Shown here one piece after another: positions 17,676 to 62,306 of a DNA stretch of 64,000 nt (position 1 is the first letter of the stretch; every line of letters begins with the position of its first letter). The DNA is taken from the NCBI GenBank assembly GCA_951406725.2, contig OX597818.1, forward strand, positions 94,798,001 to 94,862,000. The letters run 5' to 3'. Made by a program: the position numbers and the translations under genes. The DNA is from Octopus vulgaris. Lineage: Eukaryota. Under the pieces are notes generated by a model. That model saw only the letters and a list, made by a program, of their open reading frames with translations, was not told the origin of the DNA and searched no databases.

Positions 17676-20544
17676 GATGTTTTTCTGTATTTTTAATAAA
17701 AAATGCATACATATCTGTGTGTATGTATGCATACATACATACACGTGTGTGTATGTATATCTATATCTATTTATATATATATGCCTAGTACAATATTTTT
17801 CACCACTGAGTAGGTGTAGTAAGACTTCATCGTGCTCATTCCTTTCACCAGTTTAAAGACCGGATCCTTTCCATTTGGCATTGTCTGTCTTGTCTAAATT
17901 TATTTTTTATCAACTGATCTTAATGGAATTATCTCCTTTTTCTTTTTTACATTTTAAACACTCTTAGAAGGAGATTTTTGTCTACTAATTGGCCTGGATG
18001 ATCTCAGTTGATCAACACACTATTACATAATAAAATAACATTACTACTAAAATAACTATTAACAAAAACTGTGAGTGTGTATGTGTGTGTGTGTGCATAT
18101 GTACATGCATATATATATATATATGTATATTCATGTACATGTATATTTCATATGCGTGTATGTGTGGATATATATATATATTTCAACTGTTTCAAGTTCT
18201 GATTCACACTGTGTTGTATATAAAATATTGTTTAATTAATGACATTCCAACGAAAGCAAATGCAGAAAAATTAAGATGTCTACAACTGTGGTCACATAAT
18301 TTATGACTGCTGTATATTTATGGTCACTACTGTATGCGATTGATTGGGGAAACAATTAGGGTACATCTTTTTTGATGTGTGGCCAACAAACCATGAGACC
18401 TTCTATCAGGAAACTCCCTCCCTCTTCTTTGCACTCATCATAAAGGGCTTACATTATTTCACCCCCACCTAGGCTTTGTTCTATTTAAATTTCATTTCTA
18501 CTGATTCATGGTCTGTTATGCATAAAACACACACACAGATGTATTTATTTGTATTGGATATATGTGCAAGCACTTATATACATGCATATATGTTTATAAT
18601 TTAAGGCATATACATATAAAGATACAATTGTGTGTGTACACATATATCCATCTATCTGTTTATATATGTGTATAATGTTGGTAGTTCAGCCATCAGATTT
18701 GATGATGACCTAGCAACTTCAAAAAAAAAAAAAAACAGGTAAAAAGAAAAAGAGAATGAATGAAAAGGTTATAAAATGATACCTATAGTTATGTTCATCT
18801 ATTGGTGATCATTGAGGACAACATTTCAGCCATATGGCACCTCAACAGAAGATGCAACCATGTGGGGAACAGAGAATTACACCTGCTTCAACTTACACTA
18901 CAGCTTTTCTGTGTGTCTAGAGCTTAGGAAGTTGTGGGATTTTATCATGATAGATGTGTGATACCCCCACTGCTGCCATAAAAGGTCCACCATCAGTGGC
19001 TCTGAGAAGTTTCAACTATCACTAATCAATGAAGACTGCAACTAACTACACAGCTTATCAACAAAGAATGCAGTCATAGAATGGGGGAAGGTGGGAAGGG
19101 TTGTTGGCAGAAAACCTTGACTGCTCCTCTTTACACCACACCTTCCTTGTACCTGAAACTAAGGATCTATGGTATTTCATTATTACAAATGTGCTGAGCA
19201 CTCCAACCACTACCACGAGACCTCTTACTATGTATCAGTTTATTATGTACTATACATACTGAACTTGCTAGACACAAGTGCTAAACTAGCGCGTGACCCA
19301 ATACAATGATCATTGGCAACTAAACTGGCATTTGCACCAAGCTTGCTTGGTAAGAAAGATGACTTGTGATATCCTGCCGAATGAAAAGCAAGATTTGTCA
19401 AAGGCAAATGAATCTAAAGGAGGTAAAGGCTGTACAGTAATGTCTACATATATACATCAAATATTTGTGTGTATTTAGTAGCATGTTTTCATTTATTGAC
19501 CAAATGAAGCATAAAAGAAATAAGTAACATTCATGGTTTTGAAGTTGGTGACCGCAGGCCTATAGGAGAAACTGTTGCAAGTGGTAACATACTATCATAT
19601 TGGGTTAGAAGCCATGATGCAGGGCATACAACTGGAATGATACTTTATATCCTGGATATGCATCAAATTACACGGCTCTGTAAGGTTTGAAGATCCTTGT
19701 AGTCACTTTGGCAATCTACTACCTCACATAAAAGTTCAGTTGTCTTGGTTTTATCTTAACCACTGAGCAAATTGTATAAGAATGAGAGAGTCTGATGGGC
19801 ATGCAGTTCTTTCTCACTTTCAAAAGCATTGCACTAACCTAGTATTTGTGTCTAGTGAGGAAAACTGTGGTGCATGCATGCCCTCACACACATCATATTG
19901 AGTCAAATCTTGAGCTCTGTATACTGATCAACTGATCAGTAGACTTTAGCTGTTCAGAGATGTCTGTTGACTCAGTTAATTTTCTTTTGTTTAATATCCA
20001 CTTCTCACTGGAAATTTCCATCACATACTCTTTCTCTCTCTCTGACCTGCATGCACACTCATACACACACAGACAGACAGACAGACACACACACACACAC
20101 ACATGTCTACATCCTCACTTTTACCCCCTCTCTGTTGCTCTCTCTTTATATCTATGTGTCTACTGAAATTTCTCCCTTTCTTACACACTGTGTGTGTGTC
20201 TCTCTCTCTCTCTCTTTCTCGCTCTCTCACACACACACATTGTCTTACTAGAGGTCTTCCTGTCTTATTAATTATATTATTGTTTACCTACCAACCTATT
20301 ATCTATTTTGTGTGAGTGTCTATTTATCTCCACTTGTCCAACAACTAATCTCTCTACTTAAATGTGTCTCTCTCTGTCTCTTTCTTCTATCTACCTCTCT
20401 CTTTATTCCCCACCACCAACCAACACCTATGAAACAAGTACTATATGAAGAATCTAGCTCTACCCATATTAACAAATTTCATAAGGCACCCCTCCTAGAC
20501 TTTCTACCTGTTCTACACCTATGCTGTTATGTTTCATCCCCTAG

Positions 20545-20619
20545 GGAGTACACAACAGGTTAGTAACAATGGCCAGTCACAAGGAACACCACCTCCCACA
20601 CCCAGCTTTACTGCTGCAG
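20545..20619 (+). CDS. Candidate cassette exon (75 nt, phase 1-1): (G)STQQVSNNGQSQGTPPPTPSFTAA
   Basis: The acceptor is gttatgtttcatcccctag| and the donor is CAG|gtaatt. The length is a multiple of 3, the frame is open and the peptide is low-complexity and linker-like. Confidence 0.65.
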
Positions 20620-21689
20620 GTAATTATTCTATTCTCCTTTATTTCTCTACAACTAATACCCTACATTTGCACTTGTTTCTACCATCAATTACACCACCTT
20701 TACTAATAACAAATACTAAGGATAACTATGGAATCAGTTTGCTCTTTTGTATTTAGTTTGTTTGAAATATATATATATGAAGATTTTTGGTTGTTTTTTG
20801 TTGTGTTTATATTTACTCATGTTTTTATCAAAGAGTAACATTTTGATAAAAAGTGTAGTTCTGTATTACCTCTTGGTAAGTGGGATAAGAGATGTAAGCT
20901 ATCATCATCATCATCATCATTGTCATTAGTTCTGTTTTTTATGTTTGAGTTTTTCCTGTAATGGCTGATGTTGAACAGTAACCCTCTATATAATACACCT
21001 TCTCGCCATCTTATCAACTTTCATCATTCTAGGTCTCACCTATTTTCTTAATTTGAAGTCCTCTTTGGTCTTCATCTGTCACAAATTCTTTTCATGTCCA
21101 CCTGGACTACATTTTCATCCACCCCGCATCCTCCAGTTACATTAATTGCCCACTGTATGAGTTTAAGAATCTTTTTCATCTATATATGCTAATATTCTGA
21201 GCCCAGGAGTTTTCTCTTCTCTCTTCTACTTAGATTTCATGAATTATCATTGTACATTTAACTGGCCATATTTACTTTGTTCCTCTACAGTAGCTGTAAA
21301 TATTATACATTCAATATCCATGTCTCACTGCTATACATTACTACTCCCTTTACACACATTACATATTATACACACATATAATCTGCTAAATTCCTTACCT
21401 TGTGTCTCACTACCATACAATCTGAAAGATCATACCTGCTTCACTGCCATCACATATGCCATCATACATCTTACACACATATCTTAAAAATGAAGAATAA
21501 TGCATCAGATAATGTAGTCCTAAGTGAACTATGTCCAAATAAAAGGTAGAATCTCAATGATCATGATTGAAACATCTTTGATCATAAGTCTAGATCAAAT
21601 TTTAATAACAGCACATCACAAACACACTACATATAATACATTATATGCTCAGCCCCTAAAACCAGATTCACTGTTGTCTTAGTTTTCTA

Positions 21690-28964: not shown

Positions 28965-29839
28965 GTATATAGGATTAAGTAGAATTTGTGTGTATAAGGG
29001 AGAGAGGATGGTAAAGGAAAAAAAAATCATGTCGGTCTCTGCTGTCTTATTAATTGTGGGAATTAACAGACTTAGTTATCTCCCTTACAACTTATTTTAT
29101 ACACGTTTCACATGGTTTTTTTTAGTTTTTGCTATATTTCTTTACATCTGCTACAGATTATTACAAAGAATTTTCTCCCCAACATTGTTTCATAATTTAT
29201 TTATACACACATTTTACAGCATTTTATACATAAATAATACTCGGAGTGAGAGAGAAAGTGATGGAGAGTTTAATGCAATGCATCATTCACATACTATGTT
29301 ACTAAATCATAGCATCATAGATATTACCAGACAGTAATAACTGAACTTATTTAGTATTATGAAAATCATTGTATTCTTAGATGTTTTCCTCTCAACATTA
29401 TAAGCTTACTTATTAAGATTCCTCAGTTTATTGAGTTCATTAACATTTCCAAAGAGAGAAATAAATATATTTTGCATGGCGTTCTTGTCAATATTCAGCC
29501 TAACAATTTTTTCTGTCTTTCTTTTTCTTTCTTTCTTTCTTTCTTTCACATTTTTTCTCAAACATTTTTTCCTAATTTTTGAAAATATATTTTCCTATAC
29601 TGTTATTTTGCTATAAATAAAGATATCATTTATTTCAATTTGTATCATTAAATAACAAAACCAACATTTATCTCAACGATAACTTTTCTTAGATAATCAT
29701 ACTTTTTTGTTAAATGTTATTCTTATCTAATTGAAAGACATTTCATTAATATTGCAAGTTGTTGATCAAATGTGTTATGGTTAAGATGATTTGTTGATAG
29801 TATCGAACTTCTGCTAATACTGGCTCGTCCCTGCTCTAG

Positions 29840-29941
29840 GTACCCCAACGGTGCAGACTGTTGCAGAAAGCAGTCCTAAACCTGCTGCCCTTGGCTCAGC
29901 AAGTTTATTTGTTGCTGCTGTTGCTTCAGCATCAGCCTCAG
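29840..29941 (+). CDS. Candidate cassette exon (102 nt, phase 1-1): (G)TPTVQTVAESSPKPAALGSASLFVAAVASASAS
   Basis: There is a branch-like ctaat, then the acceptor tggctcgtccctgctctag|, and the donor CAG|gtaaat. The exon is symmetric and open, and is a GC-richer island in AT-rich non-repeat DNA. Confidence 0.7.
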
Positions 29942-44376: not shown

Positions 44377-45083
44377 GGTTTTAAATTTTGCCACCAGGGC
44401 AGCCATTTGGGGAGAGGAGATGTGTCGATTACATCATCTCACAGTGTTCAACTGGTACTTAATTTATCAACCCAGAAAGGATGAAAGGCAAAGTCGACCT
44501 CGGCAGAATTTGAACTCAGAATGCAGCAACAGGCAAAATGCCACTAAGTATTTCATCCAGCATGCTAACAATTCTGCCAGCTCACCACCTTATATAATTG
44601 TAAAAATAATAATAGAGGCAGTTATGTGCTGATGTTTAATTATACTTTTACCTTATGAATGTGAGGCCTTGTGCCAAAGTTAAAAACTATTAAATCCCAC
44701 TGAGATCTACTTTGCCTTTTATCTGGGCTCAATAAAATAAAATACCAGTCAAGTACTGGGGTTGATTTAATTGACTAATCTGTGGCCCACATCAAATTTA
44801 AAGCCTTGTGCATATGTTAGAAATTATTGTTATCACTACTAAAACTTCTATTGTCATTGTTAGTATAATATAATAAAAGTATAATATCACAGGAGAGTAA
44901 ATAATTGGATCATACCTTACAAGTTATTTTGTTGTACTGTGATGAGGTGTTTGTCTTCAGATAGACATGGAGTCAAAAATCACAAAGCATAAATTTAATT
45001 TCTAGCTTATGTTTTACTAAACTGTATACTTTTGTACATATTCCATGTGAGTGTTTCACCATTTTATTGTCATTACTGTGTAG

Positions 45084-45185
45084 CTGCCTCCAGTGGAAGT
45101 TCAGGTAACAGTTCAGTGGGTGGCTCTTCTCAAACTATATTATCTGCTGAAAAACAATCTTCTCAACCAGGGGTCTTAGAGCCAG
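45084..45185 (+). CDS. Candidate cassette exon (102 nt, phase 1-1): (A)ASSGSSGNSSVGGSSQTILSAEKQSSQPGVLEP
   Basis: The acceptor is ccattttattgtcattactgtgtag| and the donor is CAG|gtatgt. The exon is symmetric and open, with a Ser/Gly-rich linker-like peptide. Confidence 0.7.
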
Positions 45186-45589
45186 GTATGTGGAGAGACA
45201 CCTTTGGCCTATTCTTCCCTTCCTCTTAAAAACAAATTCCGTAATATTTGCTGACTGCAAAAACCCTGGACATTTTTCTCTTACACTTTATATATTTTTT
45301 CTATTCTCCTCTCTCTATCTCTTTCTATTTTTTTTTTTTCTTATCCAGACGTTTTTCCATTTTCTAAACCTTCTCTTCCTCTTGGTTGGTAAAATACCTA
45401 CCTTCACGTTTCTTAGTATTTGCTCCTCTTAGATCTTTTTTATTTATTTATTTATCTGGTTATTTCAATCTTATCAGATACACTTTGGTATTTTTAAAAA
45501 CAATCTATCTTACCAAAACCACTGCAATAGTAGTACCACTTTAGAGCTGACCTTCCACCCATCCCATCCTCTATTCTTTTCCTCTCCAG

Positions 45590-50679: not shown

Positions 50680-51585
50680 CATCATCATCATTATCATCAT
50701 TTAACATCTGCTTTCCACACTGGCATGGGTTGGACAGTTTGACTGAGGGCTGGCAAGCCAGAAGGCTGCTCCAGGCTCCAATCCAATCTGGCAGAGTTTC
50801 TACAGCTAGATGCCCTTCCTATCACCAACCACTCCAAGAGTGTAGTAGGTGCTTTTTATGTGCCACCGGCATGGGACCAGTCAGCTAGCACTCGCATTGA
50901 CCATGCTCAAATGGTGCTTTTTACATGCCACAAGCACAGATGCCAATCAGGCAGTACTGTCATCGGCCATGACAACAACTTCACTTGCCTCAGCAGGTCT
51001 TCGCAAGCACAGTTTATTGCCCAATGACTGAAGAATACTCTTAAATGGGCTGGTTATGCTGCCCTGGTATAGGCCACGGTTACTGACTCACTTGGCTTGC
51101 TGGGTCTTCTCAAGCACAACGTATCTGTAAAAGTCTCAGTCACTTGTCATTGCCTCTGTGAGGCCCAACATTTGAAGCTCATGTCTCGGGGCACTTAAAC
51201 TTTGTCGTATATGCACACAGACATTACACATCCATCAGAGCATACTAGCTTCGTTCTTTGCAAGCTTATGCATGTCCTCAGCAGTCACAGCCCATGTTTC
51301 ACTGCCATGTAGCATGGCTGTTCACATACATGCATCATACAGTCTATCTTTTACCCTGAGCGAGAGGCCCTTTGTCACCAGTAGAGGTGAGAGCTCTCTG
51401 AACTTTGCCCAAGCTATTCTTATTCTAGCTGTCACACATTCAGAGCATCCACCCCACTACGGACTTGGTCACCTAGGTAACGGAAGCTATCAACTACTTG
51501 TAGTTTTTTCCTCCTGGAATGTGACAGAAACTGTTTTCTGCACATTTTCATTGTGTATTACCCCTGAGCATTTGCCACAGACAAA
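50680..51585 (-). mobile_element. 5'-truncated RTE-clade LINE fragment with 3' UTR and (GAT)n tail
   Basis: The minus strand reads VVDSFRYLGDQ...VTARIRIAWAKFRELSPLLVTKGLSLRVKDRLYDAC..AMLHGSETWAVTAEDM, typical of the RTE RT C-terminus. It is followed by a 3' end shared with other copies in the window. Confidence 0.8.
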
Positions 51586-55372: not shown

Positions 55373-56667
55373 TATTTGGGAGAGTGAGAAATGTGTCTTG
55401 AGAAGAATAGCATGTGTGATCTTCTTCATGTAGAATGTGATGAGCAAGATTTAGATTGGCTTGAAGTCCATGAGTATTGGAGAGGGTTTTCACATTTCAG
55501 GAAAGAGTAGAGAATGGCAGTGCATTGAAAAGTCACATCAACCCTCTGCCAAAGGCCTGAACTGAATACTTACCATACAGTGAACTCTGCTAAAGGCACT
55601 GAAGGACCAGGTAATGATATCAAACTAGGCAGTGTCTACCACACAAAAAAAAAAGTACAGGGGTTCCTTCTACACTATATACAATGGGACTACATTAGAA
55701 GAGTAACAGAAGCATAATGACAAAGAACCTGCAAGCCCCTGTGTCAAAGTCAGGTTTTCTACAAGGATTTTCACTGCTGCTAATCTTTTTAATGAATCTC
55801 AAACAACACCAAAATACTTAATCACAGCAGTATTCCGATATGATAATACTAACTTCAAGTTATCACTCATAAAGATGTTTTATATGATGTTTATTACTAC
55901 TTATCTTTATCTTTCGTAAATGCTCACATTTGGCAGCTATACTGGTCTTCCACCTCCTTGAAATAGCAGCCAAATCTCCCTCAAATCACAAGCCAGATTT
56001 TCTTGAAAAAAGAAAACTACATGGAGAAATGATGGGATGCTTACAAATGTGTTCTTTGCTCATTCAAGGCCGACCAGCAACTAAACAGCAACAGCTATAC
56101 ACACATACTTTAGTAAACCACTTCAATACAGTTAAGTGGTGTTGTTAATAGCAGCAGCATCTACAACAAGTGCTGAATAACAGCAATTTTGACAGGATAT
56201 AGCTGGTTCATCCCAGCACCTTATTGTTGATAGGTTGTTGTAGAGCAAAGTTGAAACTGATACTGAAAGTATTCACTTAGTTTCAAGCTATAAAAATATC
56301 TTCTTCAGATAAATGTGTTGTTTTATTCAGAAAGATGACAATGATGAAGAATAACTTCTGTTTCCTATATCCCTGCTGCTGTTATTGAGCGGTTGTGGGG
56401 TGGATTGGTGGGTTAGGTTGCCACTGCAACTCTATATTTGTAATCAGCAATGAACACAAGAACAAAAGAAAGAAACCTCACACATGCCACAAACAACTCC
56501 AGTAACAAAACCTCATCACACCCCTTCCATTGTTGTCCTGCTATCTAGTTACCTTTACGATTACACTAAACTTTCTTTATTTTTCTCCCTCCCCTCTCTC
56601 AAGACAAACTTTATTCACCACCTTCACCCTTTCTATCCACCCTCTAAAAATGAAATAGTCACCTGTC

Positions 56668-56673
56668 TATAAA
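56668..56673 (+). promoter_or_regulatory. Candidate TATA box of an internal promoter
   Basis: cTATAAAt is directly preceded by an E-box-like CACCTG. It is followed by about 170 nt of relatively GC-rich, ATG-free sequence ending at an ATG in strong context. Confidence 0.45.
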
Positions 56674-56844
56674 TCCAGGGTGGCTGCTAGAGTCTTCTAC
56701 CACCTGCCATCATTGCTACTGTGCCACAGTCGGTAGCAGTTACTGTCGGTGGCATTTGCTTTTGTTTCGTATCATTGGAAGCTACCATAGCCATTACTTC
56801 TGCACTGCACGCCACACCATTCTAGGCCAAGGCTAATAATCACG

Positions 56845-56866
56845 ATGGGGGCTTCTGTTGCAAAAG
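56845..56866 (+). CDS. Candidate alternative first coding exon MGASVAK|(G), N-myristoylation-type leader
   Basis: This is the first ATG after the TATA box, in context acgATGG (A at -3, G at +4). It ends AAG|gtactg in phase 1, in frame with exon 59145. Confidence 0.55.
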
Positions 56867-58463
56867 GTACTGCTACTCCCTTTTTCTTCAGTCTTAAACT
56901 TACCTCTCCAAGACTCCTCACTTTCTCTCACACACACATATACACTCACTCACGCATGTGCTCACTCACATAAATTTTATATTAAAAAAACATTAAAAAA
57001 GTGTGTGTAAAGTCTGTTACATATAGGTAACTAAACTTTTAAACACATTCACTCATATATAGACACACATGCACACATACACACACATGCATATTCTTTA
57101 CAAAATCAATTGCATGTTATCAAAATTCTGCCTTAACAGTTGTGAGAATCAATTATTGCTGTCATGACCCAAATATGTTCACAACCCAAGATACCTTTTA
57201 TTAATTGATCCAAATGACATTAGCTTTCTTCTTTCTCATTTATTCAAATGGAGCTTTCAAATTAAATTACTATTTGTATGTTATCTAAATAATTTGGGAC
57301 CTTAAACCTTTAATAGTCAATCCAACCCTGCCAGGCCTTGCTGGCTTGTTATATCTCATAGTAGCAAAACTTCCTTGATAATCACATCATTCTGTATAAA
57401 TACTTCAACATCACTAACAGCACTGATGTTATTAATACTAAGGTGTTAAACTTTAAGCAAGACACACTAACAATTCTAATCTATATAAATACACTTCTAT
57501 ATCACCATTAGTATTATAAATACCATATTATTAAACCATATACAAGTCACATCACTTTATATATACACCAACATATCTAACACCATCACTGCAATAAATA
57601 GTGAAGTGTTAAATCTTAAGCACTCTGCTTTATAAGTATATGTACCAATATATCTAAAACATTCAGTATTATGGATATAGTGTTCAGCCTTAAGGAAGGC
57701 ACACCATACTACATAAATTCACCAGAATATCTATCAATATAAATATTGTGAATACTAACTACTTAAATCAGTATTTCTGTGTTGTATTTGTTTTCCAACT
57801 AAACATTTACTATGTATTTACTTTGCCAAAGGATAAAATTTTATTTCCACTGTGTATTTTGTATCAAGTGTGTGTGTTGGAAGTGAAAGGTGTATGTGAG
57901 CATATAATGAGTGCATGTGTGTATATGTATTAGAATGTGAGGAAAATGTGAAGTATTTGTGTATATGTAGGAGGGGTGCATGTATGTATGTATATGTGTG
58001 AGTGAGAGAATGTATGAGTGTGTAGAAAGGTGTATCAATGAAATTTGGGTTATGTGAGATGATGTATGAGATGTGCACATGTGTATAACTATTGTGTGTG
58101 TATGTGTGTGTGTATTTAATAAACATGCTCAGAGGAAGAAGGAATGAAGAGAGATGTGGGAAGAAGAGAGAGATTATACTGGTAAATACACAAGATAATG
58201 GGAGACAACTTTAATTTTTATCTTACCCTCTAGAAATGCTCCAAGTGTTTATCTTAGCTGCTGTGTTTCCGTTGTTTTGCAGTTTGAACTTACTACACGT
58301 GGAGTTTACAGTGAACTGCATGTAACAATGCAGTGACCTCATATAACTTTTGGTGACCATGTATAACATGTATAATGAAGCTATCTGCCACTGGCAAACC
58401 TTTATATACAAATTATGTCCTGTGTTGTTCTCTTTGGTATAAAGGTTTCTATAATTGTGGAGA

Positions 58464-58539
58464 ATGCTGATTCATGTTTTGTCTTTGTTGTTGTCCATCA
58501 TACTAAACTGTCAACAGCCCTGTTCATTTAACTTCAACT
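58464..58539 (+). CDS. Candidate alternative first coding exon with hydrophobic leader MLIHVLSLLLSIILNCQQPCSFNFN|(C)
   Basis: The ATG has A at -3. There are 25 open codons, then GTAAGT at 58540 in phase 1, in frame with exon 59145. Confidence 0.45.
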
Positions 58540-58592
58540 GTAAGTTACTGCATCACTAGTTCAGAGTTAATTCCTCCCATAGTAAAAGCTAC

Positions 58593-58689
58593 ATGATCCA
58601 TAGGATCAGCATTCATGACAGCTGTTTTGAAAAAAGATTAGTCTCTAGACCTGATAGTAAGTATCAATACTATTGGTACATGGAATCAG
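58593..58689 (+). CDS. Candidate alternative leader MIHRISIHDSCFEKRLVSRPD|(S) (donor 58657) or extended ...SKYQYYWYMES|(G) (donor 58690)
   Basis: Same frame as ATG 58464. There are two further GTAAGT donors (58657, and a perfect CAG|GTAAGT at 58690), both in phase 1. Confidence 0.45.
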
Positions 58690-59144
58690 GTAAGTTGTCC
58701 CTTACCACCCTCCCCGACTCAATTATATATTAGGAATATGTTGTATATCTTTCCGCTCCCCGTCCCTTTCACTGTCTTCTGCCATCTTGACCACTTCATC
58801 TCTTCCCTTTTTTAACCGCTCTACCTTGGACCGTTATCCTCAAACCTTACACATGTCATTCATAGTCAAACAAGCAACCAAATCACCCATGCCTCTATAT
58901 TTTATGAATATTTTAACTGATCTCCATGTCATAACTGTGTCATGTCATGACTACACCTTGTCACAAGTGTCTGAAGTCATAATCAGCCAAATCACAAGCA
59001 TAATATTCTGTTGCCATGGTCACCACCTCATACTTCTAATTACAAGTGATATTCTATTGTACAGTATCTTTTCAGCCTCAATGTAATTTTGTTCATTTTG
59101 AAATTTGCTAGAATTGGCACTCAAATTTCTTTTCTCTATTTCAG

Positions 59145-59228
59145 GTCGTAGCTTGGTGGCAAAGAAAAACGATGGTATTAAAGAATCCACAGATAGCAGT
59201 GCTACACTGGAAGATGAAGACACTAAAA
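59145..59228 (+). CDS. CaMKII: CaMKII internal coding exon: conserved linker segment immediately N-terminal to the association (hub) domain
   Basis: The acceptor is ...tttcttttctctatttcag| and the donor is AAA|gtaatg. The exon is 84 nt, phase 1-1, and reads (G)RSLVAKKNDGIKESTDSSATLEDEDTK. It matches the CaMKII linker as I recall it (vertebrate alpha: [30 protein letters not shown]; delta: [28 protein letters not shown]). Confidence 0.93.
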
Positions 59229-61900: not shown

Positions 61901-62306
61901 TACTCTGTATCTCTGTTGTATAATCATAGCTGCAAACTACACTCTGAAGTTGTTGACACCTCCAAACTTTCTTGGATTTTATACAATATTCTGTTCCCAC
62001 TGTACACCACATTAGTCTTTTCCATAACATCATTCTCATAATATGAGAGTTGTGATAACATAATAACCACATTTAATTATAGCTATTTATTATTTCTCCT
62101 CCACAAAAATGTAGGTAAAATGGATAGTGAGAGTAAGTAGAAACTTAGTTTCTTTTATAATCCATAACTAAAATTTGTTATTTTTAATATATTGCTAGCT
62201 CATGTTTCTTTCTGACTCCATCTCAATGTTATGTTTAATGTGTGGCCTATATTCCTTGCTTGATTTATCTGGAGTTGTCTAAACATTCAGTTCATATTTT
62301 ATCAAT

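Follow-up and report, generated by a model that had tools for sequence, protein, structure and literature searches.

The question raised by this locus is whether the CaMKII gene of Octopus vulgaris, besides specifying the full-length kinase, gives rise from an exon of its own to a hub protein that lacks the kinase domain. The window, by which is meant the whole 64,000-nucleotide stretch that was analysed (G000:C5:94798001-94862000, in a genome of 2.8 Gb), is numbered here from its first position, and the exon under study, its uORFs and TATA elements, its intron and the linker exon at 59145 lie on the forward (+) strand. A Pfam search placed the three exon matches to the CaMKII association domain at one locus only, 34-62 kb downstream of the window, which is the single CaMKII hub locus found in the octopus genome. 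Motif scans and tblastn of 264 kb of neighbouring sequence revealed that the window is preceded by the kinase exons and followed by those of the hub. The last regulatory exon, which ends in ATRNFS, is positioned ~12.9 kb upstream of it; the hub exons, which are intact, start outside it, from G000:C5:94894364. Since the majority of exons align with Octopus CaMKII proteins at 94-100%, the gene is Octopus CaMKII and the entire window represents its variable-linker region. Annotated linker exons within the window are found at 20544, 29839, 45083, 59145 and ~62117. The exon at 59145 (59145..59228, encoding RSLVAKK...EDEDTK) is shared between full-length CaMKII and the new leader described below, and RSLVAKK is present in 56 of the 59 proteins of the Octopus clusters. 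Alternative linker exons annotated for octopus CaMKII occupy 20544-20621, 29839-29940, 45083-45187 and ~62117-62137, and the O. sinensis gene is represented in RefSeq by ~40 isoforms, 3-residue micro-exons among them.

The exon of interest lies in a linker intron of 72,055 nt, 3' of every kinase and regulatory exon, and was proposed originally from sequence motifs. Examination of the sequence verified that these motifs are where the original prediction had placed them, with CACCTG at 56660, TATAAA at 56668 and acgATGG at 56845, the last of these opening a frame that reads MGASVAK. Similarly, the stretch claimed to be devoid of start codons has no ATG from 56653 to 56844, and the predicted phase 1 donor (AAG/GTACTG, after 56866) and acceptor (tttcag, before 59145) are both present, with the frame open across the join. 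The coding leader (56845..56866) comprises MGASVAK plus the first base of Gly8; an in-frame stop precedes it at 56788, and its ATG alone among those of the exon combines A at -3 with G at +4. Taken from the sequence alone, the motif pattern is nevertheless weak evidence and not beyond chance: nine Met-Gly leaders (ATG-GGN) that end at a phase 1 GT occur in the 72,055-nt intron, 16.8% of all 200-nt windows contain TATAAA, and ATG is missing from 213 of 6381 192-nt windows (3.3%). The exon is placed above chance by the presence of its junction in three sequencing runs (X5, X6 and X13) and by a homologous leader in a second protein, P0123, both of which are considered below. Another Met-Gly leader, MGWLCCP at 51045, was rejected as a chance occurrence, being located inside a repeat with 40 local matches; the repeat (50700-51200) is dispersed, with 40 matches in 264 kb, and MGWLCCP before a GT mimics a dual-acylation leader by chance.

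Transcript support was sought in 24 listed runs, 20 of which contain half or more of the words of the stretch; the runs are RNA by guess, none being recorded as RNA. Four of them (X5, X6, X13 and X10) were compared with 56250-56908, with X5, X6 and X13 originating from three studies with organism codes A, A and B, respectively. Contigs in three of the four runs (X5, X6 and X13) leave the genome at the predicted junction, 56866^59145, and continue in the 59145 exon, fitting the genome to 56868 and then 26 (X5), 24 (X6) or 28 (X13) letters of that exon past the shared GT, while the X10 contig stops at 56851, before the junction is reached, and is uninformative about it. The contigs of X5, X6 and X13 establish that the exon is real, and support its being an alternative 5' exon spliced to 59145. 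The intron so defined by sequence and contigs (56867..59144) is of the GT-AG type, is 2,278 nt in length and interrupts the frame in phase 1. The reservation expressed about its donor was justified, in that GTACTG is further from consensus than are the four neighbouring donors (GTAATT, GTAAAT, GTATGT and GTAATG), yet the splice occurs as predicted. Both sides of the junction (56600-56900 and the 59145 exon) have one match each in the assembly, and a retrocopy as the source of the joined form was ruled out, since neither exon has a second copy there. The leader is absent from the annotated proteins examined, with ASVAK found in none of the 59 of the Octopus clusters. Because the contigs reach only 24-28 nt into the 59145 exon, the connection in octopus between the leader and the hub is inferred from P0123. 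Run X13 (organism B) differs from the genome by C>T at 56588 and 56731, both of which are untranslated, leaving the coding leader unchanged, and no A>G differences were listed in the four runs (X5, X6, X13 and X10).

The 5' end of the exon departs from what had been envisaged. Contigs cover 56372-56868 in X5, 56380-56868 in X6, 56355-56522 and 56538-56868 in X13, and positions from 56660 in X10, with a further X5 contig, of depth 2, extending past 56250; the minimal extent of the exon is 56355..56866, with a start probably near 56320. The transcription start proposed at 56695-56700 is not borne out by these data, as contigs of all four runs extend upstream of the TATA at 56668, three of them by ~300 nt, and since they reach upstream of the proposed TATA the leader is longer than first read. 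A word share of 0.65 was entertained as a hint of a start at 56695-56700 and was discarded, X13 having the same share and yet being covered from 56355. The CACCTG-TC-TATAAA element (56660..56673) exists as a sequence, but the promoter role assigned to it finds no support, given that it sits inside the transcribed region; contig depth is flat, and a second, nested start at the 56668 TATA would not show. A better promoter candidate than 56668 is TATAAAAA (56289..56296), a putative TATA box of an internal promoter, located 66, 83 and 91 nt upstream of the contig 5' ends of X13, X5 and X6, respectively, although this is a weak hint in that contig ends cannot show starts. Either the promoter was misplaced by the earlier reading, or two promoters exist. 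The GC content is 48% at 56668-56866 versus 34-38% in the flanks, perhaps because the 3' portion of the leader is constrained, or because a second promoter lies here.

The same contigs bear upon the idea that the exon is instead a poison exon within the full-length CaMKII pre-mRNA, or belongs to an intermediate in which splicing of that pre-mRNA is incomplete. Such an origin could be read into the depth-2 X5 contig that extends past 56250, and into a strong polypyrimidine-AG at 56603, use of which would bring stops into the message. However, the X5, X6 and X13 contigs cross 56603 unbroken, no 5' loose end or joint was present in any of the four runs, and the 5' contig ends of three studies fall within 25 nt of one another (56355-56380). 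A conserved, Met-led leader would also be unexpected in a poison exon or splicing intermediate, and this explanation is considered very improbable. Use of the exon as an in-frame cassette in kinase mRNA was ruled out on three grounds: none of the four AG sites in 56780-56866 yields a phase 1 cassette with a length divisible by three, the AG at 56603 leads into stops, and there is the stop at 56788. There is, as shown by these sites, no in-frame route for the exon into the full-length mRNA.

If transcription starts near 56355 or earlier, then the 5' leader is at least 490 nt in length, and when measured from ~56320 it contains six ATGs in four uORFs, none of which extends beyond 56672, so that 172 nt or more separate each of them from the main ATG. 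The first uORF (56335..56388) has three in-frame ATGs and up to 17 codons, and these ATGs enter the RNA only if the transcription start is 5' of them. An ORF scan of the exon gave a second of 32 codons (56450..56548); a third of 62 codons (56484..56672) has a weak context and ends 172 nt before the main ATG, and the fourth (56650..56658) reads Met-Lys-stop. Translation from 56845 would require leaky scanning or reinitiation. It could be argued from these six upstream ATGs, several of which have a purine at -3, and from the failure of the leader to appear in any of the 59 annotated proteins of the Octopus clusters, that the transcript is real but scarcely translated, with the uORFs absorbing ribosomes and the RNA being regulatory or a by-product of the internal promoter. 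Set against this are the distance between the last uORF and the main ATG, whose context is the best of all, the 192 nt before the main ATG that contain no ATG (as in the 3.3% of such windows given above), and the conservation of both the leader residues and the frame in P0123. A scarcely translated RNA is deemed unlikely.

P0123, retrieved by cluster look-up, is a 170-aa protein from an assembled run that begins MGASYPKGRSLVAKK and runs through the whole hub. Its N-terminus, MGASYPK, is joined to the same linker exon as the octopus leader. Pfam analysis identified the CaMKII_AD domain (PF08332) from positions 1 to 126 of 128, with the kinase absent, and the top PDB match, CaMKII-alpha, aligns with P0123 starting at the linker. 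The hub of P0123 is identical to that of Sepia pharaonis at 134 of 134 positions and to that of Octopus at 157 of 162 (five differences), and it is the identity to Sepia pharaonis that indicates a protein of cuttlefish or squid type. The octopus and P0123 leaders have in common M, G2, A3, S4, K7 and the junction Gly, and differ at positions 5 and 6; the chance expectation of the shared pattern in the linker intron is 2.6e-5, for a pattern that was defined after P0123 had been seen. The test of conservation proposed with the original prediction thus had a positive outcome, ATG-GGN, Lys7 and the splice phase all being kept in a second coleoid lineage, as judged from one sequence, P0123. The claim of a kinase-less hub product is likewise borne out, with the exon lying 3' of all kinase and regulatory exons and P0123 being hub-only. 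Since P0123 is hub-only and built on the same exon, the kinase-less isoform is common to octopods and decapodiforms, lineages that split ~270 million years ago. Predicted folding of P0123 gave a mean pLDDT of 56 (10 sequences), with residues 7-35 below 50, which is too poor to serve as evidence.

The homologous leader was encountered once among the 452 proteins fetched. With residues 1-42 of P0123 as the query, none of the four candidates returned had a further Met-Gly leader, and a representative protein search revealed the leader in none of the 150 matches listed out of 1391. Its absence from two more protein searches, which extended to the best 120 of 1768 and the best 120 of 3691 matches, is weak evidence, and a plasmid search, with no match, was uninformative. 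P0391, which begins MGAS, was rejected as a homologue, as it is without the linker exon and half of the hub.

Taken together, these observations make it very probable that a kinase-less protein is produced, whether lipidated or not. The explanation preferred for the exon, to which about an even chance is given, is that it serves an mRNA for a hub subunit of ~170 residues that is kinase-less and predicted to be N-myristoylated, and that co-assembles with CaMKII and tethers it to membranes. An internal promoter, most likely at the 56289 TATA, would drive the transcript, and translation would begin at 56845 by way of leaky scanning or reinitiation past the four uORFs. Removal of Met would be followed by myristoylation of Gly2, and the subunit would then enter the hub ring alongside full-length CaMKII, mixed rings being expected because one set of exons encodes both its hub and that of the kinase. 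Avidity could hold a ring at the membrane through just a few lipid-anchored subunits, by way of a linker of ~35 residues, as several weak anchors (myristate plus Lys7, Arg9, Lys14 and Lys15) would add up on one ring. Each kinase-less subunit would also replace one kinase subunit, with the result that kinase domains would be diluted.

The leader has features that are consistent with, and features that detract from, this predicted acylation. Gly directly follows the initiator Met in both the octopus leader and P0123, each of which also has a small residue at position 3 and Lys7, and four basic residues (Lys7, Arg9, Lys14 and Lys15) are found in the first 15, with an acidic stretch after them. 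Position 6 is Ala in octopus and Pro in P0123, the favoured Ser or Thr occurring in neither. PROSITE-type patterns for myristoylation call for a small residue at position 3, a small residue at position 6 and no Pro at position 7; judged against such a pattern, the octopus leader passes and P0123 fails. Ala at position 3 is reportedly, in work by Utsumi from 2004, among the few residues that permit myristoylation without Ser at position 6. G at +4 also favours initiation, and the initiation preference for this base could alone preserve ATG-G. Passages of PMC5492501 describe Ser or Thr at position 6 (the fifth residue after removal of Met) as favoured, with many substrates deviating, and, at least in part of PMC3668125, predictors are said to be capable of conflicting with experiment at this position. 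Somewhat weakening the case for myristoylation, position 6 does not keep a small residue and Ser or Thr is present in neither form; given that the protein is made, lipidation of the leader is predicted with a probability that is a little better than even.

With position 6 being Ala or Pro, a hub protein might be made and not myristoylated. Such a protein would be soluble, with its Met removed and perhaps acetylated, and would act as a spacer, leaving fewer kinases per holoenzyme and damping autophosphorylation between neighbours. The evidence for the exon and for P0123 fits this arrangement too, and nematode hub-only gene models (C. briggsae P0358 and P0445) have N-termini that are neither Gly-led nor hydrophobic. 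On the other hand, G2, A3, S4 and K7 have been kept while positions 5 and 6 have changed, which exceeds what a start codon needs, and the vertebrate precedent at the same position is an anchor. A soluble spacer is regarded as a possible, if lesser, outcome.

The vertebrate precedent is alphaKAP, the anchor of which was reportedly described in the original papers as a hydrophobic peptide. In the sections of PMC5882894 and PMC9913510 that deal with it, alphaKAP is expressed from an alternative promoter of the CaMKII-alpha gene, has a complete association domain without the kinase, and targets CaMKII to membranes; PMC9913510 refers to the anchor as a 'lipid tail'. Those sections, together with part of PMC4033055, have alphaKAP delivering CaMKII to the sarcoplasmic reticulum and describe a role for it at the neuromuscular junction. 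Like alphaKAP, the coleoid form has no kinase or regulatory domains and retains a complete hub (as in P0123, the octopus join being deduced from it), and in both a separate 5' exon is joined to the linker exon just past the regulatory segment. Indeed, alignment revealed that in named fish CaMKII-alpha hub-only proteins the leader is attached at the point corresponding to that of the coleoid leader. In contrast, alphaKAP-type fish leaders consist of ~25 hydrophobic residues, whereas the coleoid leader has seven, is polar and shows no likeness in sequence, the best 19-residue hydropathy being 2.65 (P0216) and 2.79 (P0247) for the fish proteins versus -0.53 for P0123. A further difference is that the octopus leader belongs to the only CaMKII hub locus found in its genome. 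Because the hydrophobic-leader feature fails, the coleoid form is not classed as alphaKAP; by analogy, it is a form that would work as alphaKAP does, minus the hydrophobic helix. BAALC 1-6-8, presented in the title of a reference in PMC9913510 as a myristoylated and palmitoylated CaMKII-alpha-binding protein, resembles the coleoid form in being N-acylated and would similarly put CaMKII at membranes, but it is the product of a separate gene and binds CaMKII from outside, whereas the coleoid product would sit in the hub ring.

A hydrophobic, alphaKAP-type leader was also looked for in octopus, and remains unproven, with seven of 153 candidates passing a microsatellite filter. The region 58464-58545 contains an ATG-led frame of 25 codons, the length of an alphaKAP-type leader, that is hydrophobic in its first half and ends at a phase 1 donor (ACT/GTAAGT). 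No other candidate with a strong donor is better, and among 10 sense candidates none is more hydrophobic than this frame, but the reverse-strand control scores equally and the frame has no alphaKAP-type likeness. At 58680-58695, the sequence ATG GAA TCA G ends at a perfect donor (CAG/GTAAGT) in phase 1, 455 nt before the 59145 acceptor, and could constitute a further short first exon, encoding Met-Glu-Ser or, from the ATG at 58593, a longer frame.

Hub-only models in other invertebrates (C. briggsae P0358 and P0445, C. auriculariae P0366, Paralvinella P0072 and Dreissena P0151) share with the coleoid form an alternative N-terminus, the same linker exon, a hub and the lack of a kinase. They differ in their leaders, which are basic, hydrophobic or Cys-rich and in no case Met-Gly, and they are database gene models, some of which could be pieces of genes that annotation has split. 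In gastropods, bivalves and annelids, the hub-only entries likewise have N-termini other than the coleoid leader. The Cys-rich, basic or hydrophobic N-termini of P0151 (Dreissena), P0233 and P0241 (psyllid-type), P0358, P0445 and P0366 vary in a manner hinting, as far as database entries go, at several kinds of anchor. The P0072 model, from Paralvinella palmiformis, has a hydrophobic leader with a residue order like that of fish alphaKAP-type leaders, on the same linker exon; comparison with four such leaders, two of them from unnamed records, gave 0, 5, 1 and 0 of 2000 shuffles, and this gene model suggests that alphaKAP predates vertebrates.

In the literature covered, to which supplements and most subscription papers did not belong, no kinase-less or myristoylated form of molluscan CaMKII was found, and alphaKAP, a vertebrate protein, was the only kinase-less CaMKII product found described; the isoform may already be present in the annotations of cephalopod Iso-Seq supplements. 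That cephalopods have a spliced and conserved hub-only form, one that the annotations examined do not include, means that the strategy exists outside vertebrates, and, if the leader is myristoylated, that a lipid incorporated into the ring itself can anchor a CaMKII subunit. In the octopus, camkII marks and is enriched in the vertical lobe, a learning centre, according to bioRxiv 2022.01.24.477459, a study in which 3'-biased counting was used. Part of this vertical-lobe signal may be attributable to the hub-only form, because 3'-biased counting cannot separate kinase mRNA from hub-only mRNA. More speculatively, and with considerable doubt, kinase-less anchor subunits expressed from a promoter at one intron position may be an ancient bilaterian CaMKII device in which the anchor is exchangeable, taking the form of a hydrophobic helix in vertebrates and an annelid, of a Cys-rich N-terminus in a bivalve and, in coleoids, of seven residues that are myristoylated. 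The octopus subunit would then set both the amount of CaMKII at membranes and the number of kinases per ring, perhaps in the vertical lobe.
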